This document shows positions 17,988 to 62,699 of a DNA stretch of 64,000 bases, piece by piece. The notes beneath the pieces were generated by a model. The model did not search any database. It had not been told where the DNA came from and saw nothing but the letters and a program-made list of their open reading frames with translations. A program made the translations under genes and the position numbers. The first letter of the stretch is position 1. Every line of letters begins with the position of its first letter. Origin of the DNA: Octopus vulgaris (taxonomy: Eukaryota); the NCBI GenBank assembly GCA_951406725.2, contig OX597816.1, forward strand, positions 91,698,001 to 91,762,000, in the 5' to 3' direction.

Positions 17988-18027
17988 AGTAGACAAACGA
18001 AAGAAGGGCACTCCACAAATTTATTGG
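17758..18027. mobile_element. Penelope-like non-coding fragment with two inverted repeats and a split hammerhead core
   Basis: IR 17758-17802/17833-17877 and IR 17892-17934/17985-18027 around a TA/TG tract. TGG-CTGAAGA...GAAAC on minus; GAAACTCAGAGTA-CCA on plus. Confidence 0.55.
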
Positions 18028-18192
18028 ATCTATATCTATATCTATATCTATCTATCTATATATTTATTTATTTATTTATTCATGTATATATCTATGTGTG
18101 TGTGTCTTTGTGTCTGTGTTTGTCTCTCTCCGGTATATATACTTATATATATATATGTTGATTTATATACTTGTATGTATGTATGTATGTAT

Positions 18193-19252
18193 GGATCAGT
18201 TTGTCTACCTGGGAAGCACTATTAATAGATATGGCAATGTGGATGATGAAATTCCATATAGAATTAGGAAAGCAAGTGTTGCTTTCGGAAGGCTAGAAAA
18301 GCGCCTCTGGAGTCGGCGAGACATATGCAGAAAGACAAAGATAAAGGTGTACAAGGCATGTGTGCTCCCTTCTCTTCTCTATGCCTGCAAGACGTGGGTC
18401 ACATATCGATACCACCTTAAACAACTGGAACGTTTCCATCAGATGTGCCTCAGATGGATCTATGGCATTAAGTGGAAGGACCGCATCAGTGATCTTGAAA
18501 TATTGGAAGGCTCTCGGTGTGAAAGTATAGAAGCTCTTGTGTTAAAGCAAAGGCTCAGATGGAGTGGTCATCTGGTCAGAATGAAGGATTCAAGGATGCC
18601 AAAACAACTCTTTTATGGAGAGTTAGCTAAAGGAGAATGACCTCCACATAAACCAAAAAAGAGGTATAAGAACTTGCTGAAGGATTCGTTAAGAGATGCT
18701 TGCATCTCTCCTGACACATGGGAAGGCATAGCTATTTATCGTAGCAGGTGGAGAAGGATTGTGCATGAGGGGACAGCCACATTTGAGAAATCTCGAGTTG
18801 CACATGAGAAAGTAAGGAGGGATGTCAGGAAGGGCATCGCTGTTACACTTCCAGAAGGGAAGGGTCTTCCTTTGATTCTGACATGCAATGTCTGTGCAAG
18901 ACCCTGCCTCAGTAAAGCTGGACTCATCAGTCATCTTCGTAGTCATAAAATGAGACAGATGAGTGACAACCTGGCCACTGGTGGTGGTGTAACACACCAT
19001 ACTAATCATATCTGTCGGGCATGTGGAAGAGAGTGTAATTCGGCAGGAGGACTTAAACGACATGCAAAGGTACATGAAGCCCAGTTACAACTACAGCCGG
19101 CTATTACCAGTAAAGGTTTTAGTTGCCAATTTTGTACAAGACATTATAGATATTTAGCTGGGCTAAAAAGTCACATTTGATCACAGCACCAGTAACAGTT
19201 AAGCTTCATGCAATGGCCATACTCGATAACGAGGGGGCAGCCATAATAATAA
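18193..19252 (+). mobile_element. RTE-BovB-like LINE 3' portion with three C-terminal C2H2 zinc fingers
   Basis: FVYLGS, LLYACKTW, RLRWSGHLVRM, PKQLFYGEL and three CxxC..HxxxH fingers; only point stops; short 3' UTR and (TAA)n tail. Confidence 0.9.
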
Positions 19253-35064: not shown

Positions 35065-35850
35065 TCAGATGTAGAATCTGCAAGTTTCAAATGATTTATA
35101 AGCAACAATGAATCCAATTTTTTTTAACAGTTCATTTGATAGTTCACTATCATAACAACATTTACCTCTTTGTTTAAGTCCATATTTGATGTTCAAAACT
35201 TTTCTTAATATTTCCATACTTTGATAGTTATGTTCATTTGATTTCATAAAATCCATGTAGCTAAATATTCATCCCATATCAGCATTTGCACGTGGTAAGA
35301 TGAGATGTGTTAAAGCTGACTAGAAAAATCTTCAAATGGATCTAACCCTGTTGACTCCCGATACACTGAAAATTCAATCAAGAGAGAACTGTGTCTGAAA
35401 CTTTTATTCATCAAACATTTAAAAAAATTTTCTACTGAAACCAATTTTTGCCAGAATCTCTGAATCTTCATTAAAATGCTTTGCTAGGTCTATAATTCCG
35501 AGTTTTATTTGTTTGAGACATTCTGTTATGCTAAAATAACTCATTGACTGTAAAAAATGAAAACTCTTTGGAAAGCACTGTTTAATTTGCTCCAAATCTT
35601 CAACATCAAATTTTATGCGTTGGCTTCTTATCTCATTTTCTTGTAGCTCAGTAAATTTACACTCTGAGATTTTTATTTTGAGAATTGAGAATGAAGATAT
35701 GGTTTTAGATCCAAATTACTTTAATTGAACTTCTATCCTGGCATTATAGTTATTGAACTGGGTGAATCAATGAAGCACAGAAGATCATTCAAATTAGCGG
35801 AGTCTTGTGATTCCATTTCAAATTTTTGTTAACTCTTCAAACTTCAGAAA
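35065..35850 (-). pseudogene. hAT-type transposase C-terminal relic
   Basis: LILPRANADMG*IFSYMDFMKS..NIKYGLKQRGKCCY..LLKKIG (LP.SNA..ER.FS dimerisation motif); upstream LPKSFHFLQSMSYFSITECLK. Confidence 0.7.
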
Positions 35851-44389: not shown

Positions 44390-44689
44390 ACTTCAGGATG
44401 GAGATTTTCGGATCATGTCTGCATTTTAGAAAATTCCTGCTGGCTCTTTGCAATCTGCATGGTGGGACCACATCTGGAAAGCAATAGCCAAGGCTGAAGG
44501 GAGACAATCGTTTACCATCATGGTGCATTTTTTTAAATTGTCACTGCTCCTTATTTACATTCAACGGATATTTATCCTCGTCTTGTTTGTTGTTAACACA
44601 ACGTTTCGGCTGATATACACTCCAGCCTTCTTCTGGTGTCTTGGGGAAAATTCAAACCTGGGTTCTCATTCCTAAGGTATTTTTCGATG

Positions 44690-44721
<32 letters not shown>

Positions 44722-44861
44722 GTTATTGTTCAGGTCACTGCTTGGAATCAAACTTGCAATCTTGAGGTTAGTAGCTCGTGCTTTTAACCACTACACTCTT
44801 AACCCCAAGATTCCAAGTTCGATTCTAAGCAGTGGCCTGAAAAATAACAATAATAATAATG

Positions 44862-44924
<63 letters not shown>

Positions 44925-45515
44925 GTAATAATAACATCGAAAAATACCTTAGGAATGAGAATCCAGGTTTGAATTTTCCCCAAGACACCTGAAGAAGGCT
45001 GAAGGGTATATCAACCAAAACACTGTGTTAACAACAAGCAAGATGAGGACAAATATCCGTCAAATGTAAATTATGTAAATAACGTACACAATTCCTCACC
45101 TCTTAAATATAGAACTGTATCACCACTCCTTTTCATACTTTTTATGAATTGGATTGATATGTGCAGCTGTTGTGGAAGTGGTATCACAATCTGTGGGCAT
45201 AGGATTGGTCAACTGATAATTACAGATGAGATGGTACTATTTTGCTCATCAGAAGGTGGTCTCCAGCATGACTGAATGAATATGATTGCAACTACAAGTG
45301 GTCAAAATGTGGTTCTTTCAAAAAATGCCTGGAGTAACATTATTTGACAGGGTTCATAACTCGGAAGTCAGGGAGTCTCTCCAGGTGGGGCTGTTACTTC
45401 TTCAAATTGAGAAGTCACAACTCCACTACTACAGACATGTGATGAGAATACTGCAGAAAATAAAACACAAGGCCCATTCTTCAAGACAAGCCAACTGGCA
45501 GGAGACCTAGGGGAA
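44390..45515 (+). mobile_element. RTE-type LINE relic interrupted by a palindromic insert
   Basis: LSPLL|FILFMNWID spans the insertion; downstream GVTLFDRVHNSEVRESL..IEKSQLHYYRHVMR. Confidence 0.7.
44553..45119. mobile_element. Head-to-head palindromic tRNA-headed element carrying hammerhead cores
   Basis: ~240-270 bp inverted arms, A/B-box-like head, (AAT)n, GACAC-CTGAAGA-A-GGCTG..CAGCC-GAAACGTT-GTGTT consensus; 12-bp TSD. Confidence 0.75.
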
Positions 45516-45722
45516 GATCAGTCATTCACAACTGGGGTCCATATAACCCTTGGGGGGTGCATGTCCATATGAGAAATTTGGGAATCCAAGCAAACAAAAT
45601 GGTAACTTGAGGATCCTACAGCAGTATGTTAAGGGTCCATTAAAAAATTTTGCTTTTTATGTATTTATTGCAACAGCTACATTTCTTTCTCTAATGTTTT
45701 ACATAGTTCAATATATATATAT

Positions 45723-45848
45723 ATCAAAATAAGCAACAAGGATATCCAGAGGTAATGCAGTACGATTGTTTCATGCGACTCCATTTAATTGAACAATGCA
45801 AACAATTGTACTGCATTACCTCTGGATATCCTTGTTGGTTATTTTGAT
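45723..45848. repeat. 49-bp near-perfect inverted repeat with 28-nt spacer
   Basis: ATCAAAATAAGCAACAAGGATATCCAGAGGTAATGCAGTACGATTGTTT and its reverse complement; adjacent to (TA)n. Confidence 0.85.
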
Positions 45849-45936
45849 TATAATCACCCCATTTTGAATTATATGGATAATACCATACCAAATTCTGGTG
45901 CCTTTAACTTAAGTACCATAGTCATCTGAATCTAAA

Positions 45937-46458
45937 CTTTACTGAACTTATATATATATATATATGTAAAAGTAGGTGTGGCAGTGTGTATATATATGCA
46001 TATATACATATATGTACATACTTACACATAAATACGTATATACATATGCATATATAGGCACAGATGTCACAGAATGTAAACATGAAATACGAAATATGAA
46101 AACATGGAATACAAACTTTTTTTGCAAACAATGAAAGAAACAAATGCATTTCAAGCAAACTGTAAATTGCTCGAAATACGGTGTAGAAAAACAACCAACA
46201 ACTGATGAAGGATCATTCTTTATGATGCTTGTCTTGTTTTCCATTTCTTTCATTGTTCGCAGAAAAAAAGTTTGTATTCCATGTTTTCATATTTCGTTTT
46301 TCATATTGTTTACGTTCTGTGATGTCTTGTGCCCATATATGCATATGTATATACATATTTATGTAAGTATGTACATCATCATCATCATCATCATCGTTCG
46401 CTTTCCATGCTATATGTATGTTTATATGCATATATATGCATATATGTGTATGTATATA

Positions 46459-48464: not shown

Positions 48465-48651
48465 GGAGTGAGCACATTAATGTGAAACAAGGTGGAAAAA
48501 AATGTACTCAAATACCAGAGGTAGAGTAATTTGCTTTATTTAAAAGCAGCAGAAATATAACAAAAGCTTTTAAATAAAGTATATATATATATTTCGTTTT
48601 TGGATTTGGTTTGCAAGATTCTTTATATGAGTTTGTGTGTTGAAGAATATT

Positions 48652-48856
48652 CTGTTGTGTCTGGGGAGAGTCATTTTCTTTTTGTGCCTTATAATGTAAC
48701 ACACTCTCCGGTAAAATTTCCACTTTTTTCTTATTTTTATTTTCCTAAAATTTTCGTTTTAGGAAAAATAAAAATAAGAAAAAAGTGGAAATTTTACCGG
48801 TCAGTGTGTTATATTATAAGGCACAAAAAGAAAATGACTCTCCCCAGACACCACAG
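48652..48856. repeat. ~100-bp-arm palindrome between TA tracts
   Basis: GTGTCTGGGGAGAGTCATTTTC...CCTAAAA ttttcg TTTTAGG...GACTCTCCCCAGACAC. Confidence 0.9.
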
Positions 48857-48903
<47 letters not shown>

Positions 48904-55969: not shown

Positions 55970-56381
55970 GCATGTATGTATATATATACGTATGGAAGTG
56001 TGTATAGATATATGCATATATATATATACATCATTATCATCATCATCATCATCGTTTAACATCCACTTTCCATGCTAGCATGAGTTGGACGATTTGACTG
56101 AGGACTGGCGAACCAGATGGCTGCACCAAACTCCAGTCTTATCTGGCAGAGTTTCTACACCTGAATGACCTTCCTAACACCAACCACTCCGAGAGTGTAG
56201 TGGGTGCTTTTATGTGCCACTGGCAATATATATATATATATATACATATATAATATAAATAGCACATATATATATGTGTATATACATACATATATGTACA
56301 TACTTACATATATATATATATATAAATAAATAAATAAATAAATAAATGGAGTTGAACGAAGATGTTAACAAAATTCCTTTA

Positions 56382-56463
56382 CTTTCAACATATGTTTCGA
56401 AGACAACATGGTTTTATTCCAAAGGAATAAACGGTGCAAGATGCAGTCTTCTCATCAGGAAAG
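56382..56463 (-). ncRNA. Type I hammerhead ribozyme (left arm of palindrome 56333-56685)
   Basis: CTTTC-CTGATGA-GAAGAC...GTCTTC-GAAAC-ATAT-GTT-GAAAG. Confidence 0.8.
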
Positions 56464-56554
56464 AAAGGGAGCCTCTCTCAATTATTGTTTTGTTTACCAT
56501 GTAGGCAGTCATCACAATTATTGTTTTGTCTTGTTGTTGAGAGAGGCTCCCTTT

Positions 56555-56636
56555 CTTTCCTGATGAGAAGATTGCATCTTGCACCGTTTATTCCTTTGGA
56601 ATAAAACCATGTTCTCTTTGAAACATATGTCGAGAG
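56555..56636 (+). ncRNA. Type I hammerhead ribozyme (right arm), GUC cleavage site
   Basis: CTTTC-CTGATGA-GAAGA...TCTTT-GAAAC-ATAT-GTC-GAGAG. Confidence 0.8.
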
Positions 56637-56852
56637 TAAAGGAATTTTGTTAACATCTTCGTTCAACTCCATTTATTTATTTATTCATATATAACACACA
56701 AATTTCTGCACATGAACCCGGAGTTTCTACCCTTGGATAGGCTGCTTCAAACGTGTTTTATGACGTGAATTTGCTACCCTGGTATCGGTTCATCGAATTT
56801 TCCATGTTGATGGTAAACATAGGATAAGTCATTCCTCTATCGAAATATATAC

Positions 56853-57240
56853 ATATATATATGCATATATGGGTACAGGATGTCACAAAACATAAACAAC
56901 ATGAAATACAAAATATGAAACTATGGAATACGGACTTTTGTATGCGAACAACAAAAGAAACAAATGGAAAACAAGACAAGTAACATAAAGAACAACCCTT
57001 CATCAGTTGTCGGCTGTTTTTCAACTCCACATTTCATGCAATTCACGACAATTGCTCAAAATGTGGAGCAGAAAAACAGCCGACAACTGATGAAGGGTTG
57101 TTCTTTATGTTTCTTGTCTTGTTTTCCATTTGTTTCTTTTGTTGTTTGCATACAAATGTTCATATTCCATGGTTTTGTATTTCATATTTCATGTTTTTTA
57201 TATTTTGTGACATCCTGTACCCATATATGCATATATATAT
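56853..57240. repeat. ~185-bp-arm palindromic element flanked by (TA)n
   Basis: Arms are reverse complements around a short loop at ~57040-57052. Confidence 0.9.
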
Positions 57241-57332
57241 ATATATATATATATATAAGAGAACAAAGTGTATGTATGTTGATATATATATATATATATA
57301 TATATATAAGAGAACAAAGTGTATGTATGTTG

Positions 57333-57364
<32 letters not shown>

Positions 57365-57371
<7 letters not shown>

Positions 57372-57690
57372 CAAAACATCCGGACAACTAGGTGATACAA
57401 AAAGGGACATCCAGATAGACAATACAAAAAAATAAGGACGGGGTCATTGAAAGCTTTCTATCCTCAGTCAAGAACCGGATCATCCTCGCAATTTCGGCTG
57501 ATTAGTCTTGAGATTGCTCCAATCTGGCCAGACCCAAGGAAAAACTAAGCTAAGAGCATTAGATTCCTTGGAAGAAAGCATCAAAAACAAGGACGGAAAA
57601 ACAGACAATGTTACACAAATATAAATACAATAAATACAATATAAAAACAATAAAAATAATAACAGGACATAACAACAGACCCAGAGAGAA
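57365..57690. mobile_element. Unclassified repeat, second copy at ~61620-61920
   Basis: Shared GAGATTGCTCCAATCTGGCCA..CCAAGGAAAA..AAGCTAAGAGCA; both copies follow TA-rich microsatellites. Confidence 0.7.
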
Positions 57691-57829: not shown

Positions 57830-59435
57830 TGAAAGACTTGAAAGCCTAGGAATAATCAAGATGGATCACTCAGACTGGGAAGCACCTACAGTCTACGTAA
57901 AAAAGAAAAATAGCAAGTTAAGAGTTTGTGCAAAATTTTCAACAGGTTTGAATGATTGCACATAGCTACCCATTGCCGTGCCCTTAGGAAGTGATTGAAA
58001 AGTTTGAATGGAGGGAAATTCTTCTTAAAACTAGACCTCTTGGAGGCATATCTACAAATCCAAGTAGAAGAAGAATGCTCACATTTATTAACCATCAATA
58101 CACACCATGACTTATTTAAATTTAAGCATCTTCACTTTGGTGTGAAAGTGTCTCCTTCCATATTTCAGCAAATAATAGTTACAATACTGGGTGACTGTGA
58201 TTTTGCTATCACCTATTTAGACGATATTCTAATAAAAAATGAATCATGTGAACAACATGTAAAGCACTTTAGAAGGGTATTTGAGAAGATAAGAGAAAAT
58301 AGTTTCAAGTTAACGGAAGAAAAATGCAAGTCCTTTATGAAAAAAATTAAATACTTGAGCCAGATAATAGATAAAAATGGATGGAAACCGGATCCATCTA
58401 GAACAACTGTGATAAAAAATGTGCCAACACCAAATAATGTAACCATGCTAGAAGCATTCTTGGGTTTAGTAAATTATTATCAAATTTACATTCCCAATAT
58501 ACATAATGTAAGGGCCCTGCTCAATGATCTGTTAAAGAAAAATACAAAATGGTGTTGGACTGATGTCAGAAGGCATTTGATGAGTTAAAAAGCATTTTAA
58601 CATCAGACTTATTGTTAACGCATTTTGATCCAAAGATGGATATTATATTGGTTACAGATGTGAGTGACTATGGTGCAGAAGCCATACTTCTGCACAAATA
58701 TGATATTGGTAAATTGTCTATAGCCCATGCATCACAATCGTTATTACCAGCTGAAAGGAACTATAGTCAGATAGAAAAGGAAGTCTTAGCAATCATATTT
58801 GGTATGAAAAAGTTCCATAGATTTAATCATGGAAGAAGTTTCTATCTACAAATGGATCGTTGCCTATTACTGTCAATATACGGTTGTAAAAATGGAATAT
58901 CAATACACACAGAAAATAGACTACAGCAATGGGGCACTACATTATTGAATTATGACTACAAAATGGAATATTTACCGCCAAAAGACCTAGGGCATGTGGA
59001 TGGTTTGTCCAGACTTGCACCGAAACACTGCAAGCTGTTCAAAGATATGGTAATTGTAGCTTCAAGAGCAGAAGGAGAAATAAAAAATGTAATGGGGAAT
59101 GTGATACACAAATTACTAGTAACCCTACAAGACATAAAGTGAAATGCAGTAAAGGACAAATTCGTAACAGAAGCGAAAAGAACACTGTGGTCAGGAAAAG
59201 TAAATTGGAATAGGATTGGTGCGAAACAAAACCAAGGCACGAACCTATACTCAATTTGTGATGGCATACTGATGTATGCACAAAGAGTAGTGATATCTGA
59301 AATACTACAAAAGAAAACGTTGAGGGAATTTCATGTTGGACATTTTGGTTAATACATATAGCTATGTATTAACATAGCTACATGTATTGATCAAAAATGG
59401 ATAGAGAAATCAAAAATTTAGTGAAAGGCTGAAAA
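57830..59435 (+). mobile_element. Gypsy (Mag-like) pol fragment: RT, RNase H, start of integrase
   Basis: LDLLEAYLQI, TYLDDILI, FLGLVNYY, DVSDYG, NYSQIEKEVLAII, GHVDGLSRL; frameshifts. Confidence 0.92.
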
Positions 59436-59915: not shown

Positions 59916-59995
<80 letters not shown>

Positions 59996-60038
59996 ATGAA
60001 AGAATGGAGTCGAACGACGATTTAACAAAATTCCTTTA

Positions 60039-60121
60039 TTCTCAACATATGTTTCGAAGACTGCATATTCTCAATTCCGAAGGAATAAAGGGTGCATTAT
60101 GCCGCCTTCTCATCAGGAAAA
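60039..60121 (-). ncRNA. Type I hammerhead ribozyme, third copy of the 56.4 kb family
   Basis: TTTTC-CTGATGA-GAAGGC...GTCTTC-GAAAC-ATAT-GTT-GAGAA. Confidence 0.75.
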
Positions 60122-60599
60122 ACAAGGAACTTATGTCAGCATCATGACGAACAAAAACTTTTAGATGACTGCCCACACGGAGTCCATAGTGATATTATAT
60201 ATATGATTGTATTTGGTGCATGAGAGTCAGAGAATTTTTTTTTTCAGTTTCTTTTCCTTTTTTAGGATGATCTTGATAAAAGGTAGAATAAACAAATCGC
60301 TTGGAGGACTCACACAGGGACTTATTCAAAGTGGTAATGGCTTGTGTGGGATCATTCACACTCTTTTGATATCGCTGATAGTAACACCTGGTGCAACTAT
60401 GTTATGAGACTTATGAACAGCTGACCTCAAATGGATGGTCATTGACTCTCAGAAGTTCCTCTGCCCTTTGACGAGTCTTGTTTTTCCTCCTACAGGATAA
60501 TTGCCCTCCTCACCAAGGTGGGGTTGCTGTTTTAGTTGCCAATGACCTGACCTTGTGACAGATTGGATTGGTTTATGTGTTACAAGTAGCCCTCAAAGA

Positions 60600-61432: not shown

Positions 61433-61523
61433 TCATCATCATCATTAAACGATGATGATGATGATGATGATGATATATATATGATATATATATATATGTA
61501 TATATATATATATTTATATATAT

Positions 61524-61615
<92 letters not shown>

Positions 61616-62699
61616 TTATAAAATACAAAAATTGGGACAAGAATGCAAAACATCTGGACAGACGATATAAAGAAAACAAGGATCAGTCATTCGGAGTTTT
61701 CTTTCCTCAGTCAAGTTCAAAATTTTCTTTGCAATTTTGGCTGGTTATACTCGAGATTGCTCCAATCTGGCCAACCCCAAGGAAAATCTAAGCTAAGAGC
61801 ACTAAATTCCTTGGAAGAAAGCAGCGAATGTATATGAAAACAAGGATGGAAAAAAATGGAGAAATGGTACACAAATACAAATAACAGGACATTAACAACG
61901 GGTGTCTTTCGGCTACACACAACAGACATCTTTCAGGTTTTGTCAACTAATTCCACTCACAAAGCTTTGATAAGCCTGGAGCTATAGAAGACATGAAGAC
62001 TTTTGCCGCACATGCTGCTCAGTGGGACTGAATCCCAGACCACATAACTGGAAATTTAAAAAATTTCTTACATAATTTCACATTACATTTGATGTTAATT
62101 TCAATTTTTGGCACAAGGCCAGTAATTTTGGGGTAAGGGAATAAATCGATCACATCGACTCCAATGCTCAACTGGTACTTATTTTATTAACTCCAAAAAG
62201 TAAAAAGGCAAAGTCAATCTTGGCGGAATATGAACTCAGACCGTAAAGACAGATGAAATGCCACTAAGCATTTTGCCCAGCACAGTAGTGATTCTGCCAG
62301 TGTGTCACTATACATTACAAATGATATTACCAATATAAAGAACTGGTGTAACCTCACTTTTAATACTTTAGTTAGAACTTGTATGACAAGTAACCAGCTA
62401 CTAAACATATAACTTCTAGAATTGTCACACATGATTCACAACTCTGTTGTTTTCAGCATTTTCTGATTCTCATGTAGAAAAGTCTAATCTCAGCATTCTG
62501 AACTACCAGAACCACTTATTCATTTCCTGTCAGTTCAGATTCCCGGACAACCAAATTGCTAATTTTTTTTCTTTTTTTTTATGCTTCTTACTTGTTCTGG
62601 TGTAAGGTAAGTGGGTCACGGAAAGATATTTTTAAAGTTAACTGTTATAGTGGAAAATGTTTTCTTTCTCTTTTATATATGTATTTATATATGTATGTA

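Follow-up and report, generated by a model that had tools for sequence, protein, structure and literature searches.

A hammerhead-bearing palindrome in Octopus vulgaris DNA is probably the footprint of a Penelope-type insertion

Is a palindrome with a hammerhead motif in each arm a mobile unit in its own right, or is it what an insertion left behind? The question is raised by a locus within a 64,000-nt stretch of Octopus vulgaris DNA (contig OX597816.1, hereafter the window), from an animal genome that is AT-rich and rich in microsatellites. The original prediction placed at 56333..56685 two inverted arms of ~150 bp with two intact hammerheads, and took the whole for a non-autonomous unit related to Penelope-like elements (PLEs) or retrozymes.

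The inverted arms are real. They occupy positions 56326-56481 and 56537-56692, are 156 nt each and 96% complementary (mismatches at 5 of the 149 positions over 56537-56685), and are separated by 55 nt. The predicted extent was too short, since contigs of public sequencing runs show that the right copy reaches ~56845. The parts of the locus and a third, solo copy of the repeat are as follows.

56226..56344, no strand: (TA)n/(TAAA)n tract, the left target, read from the sequence
56326..56481, minus strand: left arm, an inverted, 5'-truncated repeat copy that halts at the short end, within a (TTTA)n/(TA)n tract
56482..56845, plus strand: right copy, 5'-truncated, extending to the long end, ~364 nt; the right boundary is approximate
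56482..56536, plus strand: the "spacer", which is the 5' part of the right copy and no separate linker, from the solo-copy match and loose ends of contigs
56693..56845, plus strand: tail-like extension between the short and long ends, ~150 nt, in a single arm only, from contigs
59983..60186, minus strand: solo copy of a second subfamily, its hammerhead with a 54-nt stem II, within (TA)n, from alignment and descriptor

Contigs from public runs were aligned to 56482-56830 (right copy) and, separately, to the left arm. Four runs yielded, for the right-copy stretch, 2160, 1281, 715 and 159 contig pieces; many letters varied among these, and each run covered at least 29 of 30 bins. The left arm was represented by 1096, 671, 385 and 83 pieces; because summed depths are not copy numbers, the claim is limited to many variant copies. 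Position 56690 was bridged by contigs of runs X1 (56640-56738), X5 (56625-56725) and X6 (56615-56741 and 56640-56750), and 26, 20, 10 and 7 contigs with loose ends at 56827 ran into TA. Thus, the right copy continues ~150 nt past the palindrome, to ~56845, and its long end adjoins a TA-rich tract at ~56846-56870. Past 56481, 35 (X1), 18 (X4), 11 (X6) and 5 contigs continued with sequence matching the reverse complement of the spacer, and the solo copy matches the right copy from ~56491-56497, from which it follows that the spacer forms the 5' part of the right copy itself. Five contigs of run X13 turned into TA after 56693. The extension at 56693-56845 has no second copy elsewhere in the 64-kb window, and no long ORF was found in the frames of the ~364-nt right copy. 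The end positions rest on three copies and short contigs, and the locus's own junction was not seen among the matches listed (32 contig pieces, beside 2226 unlisted ones).

The insertion consists of two copies in head-to-head orientation, the short-end one of 156 nt and the long-end one of ~364 nt. A closed 350-bp unit is ruled out: since the spacer belongs to the right copy, which has a further ~150 nt, the palindrome is not itself the unit but the insertion footprint of two truncated copies. What stands of the proposed PLE/retrozyme-like unit is the link to such elements, through the many variants, the third copy, the TA targets and the published layout.

Long inverted arms around a short spacer would also be expected if a hammerhead had been captured by a MITE or foldback DNA transposon, with its long terminal inverted repeats. 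However, the ends differ by ~150 nt between the arms and are thus asymmetric, the spacer consists of sequence that lies upstream in the family itself, and one of the copies has a single arm, so that symmetric terminal inverted repeats are not found at every copy. Right-copy contigs also hint at inner junctions that vary from copy to copy, which a MITE would not show. We regard this origin as extremely unlikely.

Another route to the left arm, which we consider unlikely, is fold-back, in which one cDNA would have primed itself at the junction and recopied 156 nt, with no second priming event. The junction lies near 56479-56482, where a small palindrome is present and where CAATTATTG starts a 15-nt direct repeat of 56515-56529; the arms are 96.6% identical and have in common a (TTTA)n form that is lacking in the solo copy; and self-priming is proposed in the part of PMC3846280 that we consulted. 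However, the left arm ends where the armless solo copy ends, both in the same A/T stretch followed by (TA)n, which indicates that the short end serves as an end even where no fold-back took place. Opposite-strand joints at 56557/56770 (X1) and 56640/56708 (X6), one contig each and with direction not given, would unite non-overlapping parts if they are head to head, which fold-back could not do; this is a weak hint against a recopied arm.

The hammerhead features identified in the two copies are listed below.

56555..56636, plus strand: type I hammerhead motif of the right copy, GUC site after 56631, from descriptor and folding
56382..56463, minus strand: type I hammerhead motif of the left copy, GUU, G10.1-C11.1 kept, from descriptor and folding
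56567..56619, plus strand: extended stem II of 53 nt, with a basal helix of ~11 bp, an asymmetric internal loop and an 8-bp apical hairpin, from folding
56623..56630, plus strand: self-complementary stem III/loop III, forming 2 bp and a tetraloop in the monomer and an 8-bp helix between two copies

Both motifs read outward, with CUGAUGA at 56560 (+) and 56458 (-), and the coordinates, strands and GUC/GUU triplets predicted for the two cores were all confirmed. The core of each arm consists of CUGAUGA, GAAA-CAUAUG-U and the triplet GUC (right) or GUU (left); the predicted cut site follows 56631 in the right arm, and N17 of the left arm is 56387. Stem I comprises 5 bp, a U bulge and a further 5 bp in each arm. 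The palindromic stem III and the ~53-nt stem II with an inner hairpin, likewise predicted, were both found: A9 to G12 spans 53 nt, including the inner 8-bp hairpin, and the computed stem III self-duplex amounts to -7.0 kcal/mol. A common loop III variant at 56627 can also self-pair (-6.0 vs -7.0 kcal/mol). Pairing between loop I and the first 10 nt of the internal loop is no stronger than -2.9 kcal/mol, counting canonical contacts only. All three copies keep the type I core order of CUGANGA, GAAA and NUH (GUC, GUU and GUU), stems I-III can be formed, and G10.1-C11.1, the family majority being G-C, is present in the left arm and in the solo copy. In isolation, adopting the active fold requires 3.1 (left), 3.2 (solo) and 6.0 (right) kcal/mol relative to the free ensemble, a cost to be expected of a dimer-acting motif whose stem III has 2 bp, going by the part of PMC4209133 consulted.

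Our own type I descriptor gave three matches in 64 kb, namely both arms and the solo copy (60116, minus strand); 100 block-wise dinucleotide shuffles gave a mean of 0.07 matches, and 93 of them had none. The Infernal-type search proposed with the original prediction gave no hammerhead: Rfam returned no matches at gathering score across the window, and with E up to 10 there was no hammerhead family among 65 matches in 56000-57400, where the microRNA matches reflect hairpins only. The Rfam hammerhead models were probably defeated by the long stem II. Pattern scans for the motif returned no viral contigs and, in metagenomes, no match with a strict pattern and nine with a looser one; these nine were rejected by eye as chance, being devoid of stem III, NUH and stem I.

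The three copies allowed us to ask whether the core is better conserved than its flanks. Identity between the solo copy and the arms is 79-81%, and none of the three stems has been lost in it. Across the three copies, one of 32 predicted pairs is changed on both sides and six on one side, and in the second subfamily pair 5 of stem II is G-C instead of A-U, a compensatory change (loose-end consensus and the solo copy's 5' strand). All 12 letters of the core are the same in the three copies despite ~21% divergence, and none of the 20 left-arm variants listed falls on them. The invariant core is suggestive, although at a chance level of ~0.06 it is not significant. Some support thus exists, at the level of sequence, for the hammerhead motif as a trait of the family.

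At this locus the motif is changing. The right arm has a private C11.1-to-U change (56619) and a G-to-C change (56614), which weaken stem II and leave the right copy with G10.1-U11.1 and one broken stem II pair; the family letters, C at 56619 and G at 56614, make up ~99% of depth in all four runs. The left arm has a private C17-to-U change (56387), at which the family C holds 92-99% of depth in the three DNA-type runs; GUU is still within the NUH rule as given in the consulted part of PMC3884650. Two of the five arm differences fall on C11.1 and C17, each at a CpG, and two of the four CpG sites of the arms are hit. Judged by these letters, both motifs appear to be drifting away from the family majority. 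The cores are in place, but to call the hammerheads intact was an overstatement, as each arm has a private change at C11.1 or C17.

We next consider what an RNA crossing the locus would do. For a 367-nt RNA of either strand a ~150-bp hairpin is predicted (-254 and -251 kcal/mol), within which folding as a hammerhead costs 112 (+) or 102 (-) kcal/mol. Transcription from either strand would indeed place one ribozyme and its antisense copy in the same RNA, as the layout had suggested: the sense core starts at nt 235 on both strands, and the antisense copy is made earlier. With the antisense arm first and a penalty above 100 kcal/mol, cleavage of read-through RNA is unlikely, which speaks against the suggested cutting of pre-mRNA. 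A transcript that covers the two copies is predicted to hold the motif closed within the ~150-bp duplex, a locking that an RNA starting inside the spacer would escape. Were the locus transcribed, double-stranded RNA would form.

The same duplex could be seen as a selected regulatory device that cleaves host pre-mRNA or is retained as an editing substrate, since a near-perfect hairpin of ~150 bp is predicted on either strand. None of the public runs on record as RNA contain the stretch, and those guessed to be RNA contain contigs of the family only. In run X12, which is guessed to be RNA, four letters are clearly enriched relative to three DNA-type runs, and three of these (56379, 56421 and 56428) are A>G or T>C; they hint weakly, at the level of the family and from another individual, at editing and are not informative on the palindrome locus. 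Against selection stand the folding penalty with the antisense arm first, the private changes at C11.1 and C17, and the lack of a host exon among the 132 frames scanned in the window. Moreover, similar palindromes of other families lie at 44553-45071, 46012-46376, 48647-48861 and 56845-57248, which makes such a layout routine here. We hold a selected device to be very improbable.

These other palindromes have features of their own. The one at 56845-57248 (404 nt, 90%) is a second head-to-head palindrome that adjoins the long end; it has a related copy at 46012-46376 and an outward-facing CTGATGA, and the descriptor found no type I fold in it. In the palindrome at 44553-45071, arms of 178 nt (90%) enclose an insert bounded by (TTA)n/(TAA)n, and a degenerate, short-stem hammerhead-like motif was read by eye in both arms. 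Palindromes at 48647-48861 (216 nt, 92%) and 45718-45852 (139 nt, 85%) lie beside TA tracts and are negative with the hammerhead descriptor. Another TA-anchored repeat is present in two copies (57223-57627 and 61492-61883, 74%), and in both of these CTGAGGA lies on the minus strand (57467 and 61710).

The frames mentioned above were scanned with Pfam (132 frames, from 178 passing a length and complexity filter). A CDT1 match at 35422-35715 was rejected as a host exon, its relatives being hAT transposases and the window copy having stops; the surrounding 35080-35828 (minus strand) is the decayed remnant of an hAT-family transposase, containing stops and a change of frame, and its CDT1 match is weak and spurious. 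Between the palindrome and the solo copy, 57995-59139 (plus strand) is an LTR-retrotransposon fragment with reverse transcriptase (RT) and RNase H. At 17993-19177 (plus strand) a non-LTR-like RT C-terminal frame is followed by a C2H2 zinc finger frame (zinc fingers at 18641-19177). A bacterial promoter scan and ARAGORN on the window were uninformative.

Taken together, the palindrome very probably consists of two 5'-truncated copies of a hammerhead-bearing repeat, set head to head in a TA tract by what was likely a single PLE-driven insertion. The arm geometry, the motifs, the many family variants, the short and long ends and the TA flanks were all observed. The traits of insertions of endonuclease-bearing (EN+) PLEs are found here: an inverted, 5'-truncated, head-to-head copy, a one-sided extension, and an AT-rich or (TA)n target at both insertions. 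A target-site duplication is unreadable in the microsatellite flanks. No ORF for a PLE RT or GIY-YIG endonuclease was found in the 364 nt of the right copy or among the 132 frames, the copies being truncated, and the sole RT that Pfam found in these frames is the LTR-type fragment at 57995-59139.

In the mechanism that we propose, a PLE RT with endonuclease would nick both strands of (TA)n, and the element RNA would serve as template for two cDNAs, the one primed at the long end reaching ~364 nt and the one primed at the short end 156 nt. Premature termination of both, followed by joining of the truncated ends, would complete the insertion. In the parent family, two copies in the same direction may pair via the palindromic stem III and cut multimeric RNA; at the palindrome locus the same-direction partner is absent from the insertion, and folding predicts that the ~150-bp duplex encloses the motif. 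A host RNA crossing the locus would likely form a passive double-stranded hairpin open to ADAR, with no cut.

The parent of such a footprint may have been a non-coding tandem retrozyme, with a monomer of more than 364 nt that is cut by its hammerhead and circularised and that borrows PLE enzymes. This possibility, to which we give about an even chance, refines the insertion reading, the remaining share going to the 3' end of a coding PLE. An ORF is absent over 364 nt, the extension is long, and the family has a stem III of 2 bp with a tetraloop, and C17, like the invertebrate retrozymes in the consulted part of PMC7229834. However, tandem copies are found at neither the palindrome nor the solo-copy locus, and no joint leading from the long end back to the 5' part was found in contigs over 56482-56830, a stretch that the monomer could exceed. 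Pairing of the 5' 45 nt with the extension is weak, the observed value being reached by 3 of 60 shuffles and, for the duplex, by 181 of 1000. A 10-nt perfect complement between 56491-56500 and 56811-56820 closes a 364-nt fold and is not clearly above chance.

More speculatively, the family may be an abundant non-coding cephalopod retrozyme whose conserved, branched 53-nt stem II either takes the place of the usual loop-loop contact or serves as a binding site for the Penelope protein, with two RT starts ~150 nt apart. If this were true, which is possible but doubtful, two-armed insertions would record two separate primings and would seed the genome with ready-made ADAR hairpins.

The locus itself is likely ordinary genomic debris with a layout that is already known, and only the long stem II and the long extension are uncommon. 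As one more PLE-type stub it is of little weight, and its value is that of a test case. The long stem II is a hammerhead form that was missed here by the Rfam models, and hairpins of this kind would, if they lie in introns, provide extra passive editing substrates.

We compared the locus with known systems; unless a supplementary file or database is named, what follows reflects the consulted parts of the cited papers. Among animal non-LTR retrozymes (PMC7229834; bioRxiv 10.64898/2026.07.22.740005), the family has counterparts that are non-coding, AT-rich and PLE-related and that carry a type I hammerhead with a 2-bp helix III and a tetraloop. These elements are defined by tandem units and circular RNAs, whereas a tandem arrangement was not seen here.

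The minimal and dimeric PLE hammerheads (Cervera and de la Pena 2014, PMC4209133) are likewise of type I, with a palindromic helix III suited to dimers and G10.1-C11.1, and they include dual motifs on opposite strands, 100-700 bp apart, as in the palindrome. Unlike them, the motif described here has no extra nucleotide between A9 and 10.1, its helix II is far longer than their 7-8 bp, and its stem I is 10-bp and bulged. Over the 26 animal rows in File S2 of PMC8557442, by our own count, stem II plus loop takes 10-24 nt, compared with 53-54 nt here. The spike moss element PLE-X1_sMoe in the same file likewise has 53 nt (9+35+9, own count), which provides a precedent for a long stem II in a PLE hammerhead. 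It differs in being a plant element, endonuclease-less, 28S-targeting and flagged as non-canonical, and its sequence looks unrelated by eye. Seven short motifs of the palindrome family are absent from the PMC8557442 supplement, which places the family outside its octopus consensus sequences unless line breaks hide a match, and a title-level search with partial journal coverage for literature on octopus hammerheads or long stem II found no paper on the family.

The closest likeness is to the inverted, 5'-truncated pLTR insertions of EN+ PLEs (PMC3846280, PMC8557442; e.g., Penelope-13_HM and Hydra-1_Obim), which are also head-to-head truncated copies. In these the inverted pLTR is shorter than the direct one and the head-to-head arrangement is the most frequent (PMC3846280); the insertions have an inverted 5'-truncated copy, a tail at one end only and a (TA)n bias (PMC8557442). 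The palindrome has the same shorter inverted copy, one-sided extension and (TA)n target. Both have a type I hammerhead near the 3' end, which places it on both strands, as in the Repbase consensus Penelope-13_HM (PMC8557442 supplement). The differences are that the extension here measures ~150 nt, about four times the published 30-40 bp for PLEs, and that no ORF is linked to the family in the present data. In the anole PLE (PMC11167929), the protein acts on both strands of AT-rich sites, cutting and extending them; hammerhead cleavage needs the protein and is dispensable for insertion, and two RT start sites flank the tail. The short and long ends described here, ~150 nt apart, offer a genomic test of this two-start-site model, which comes from work in vitro.
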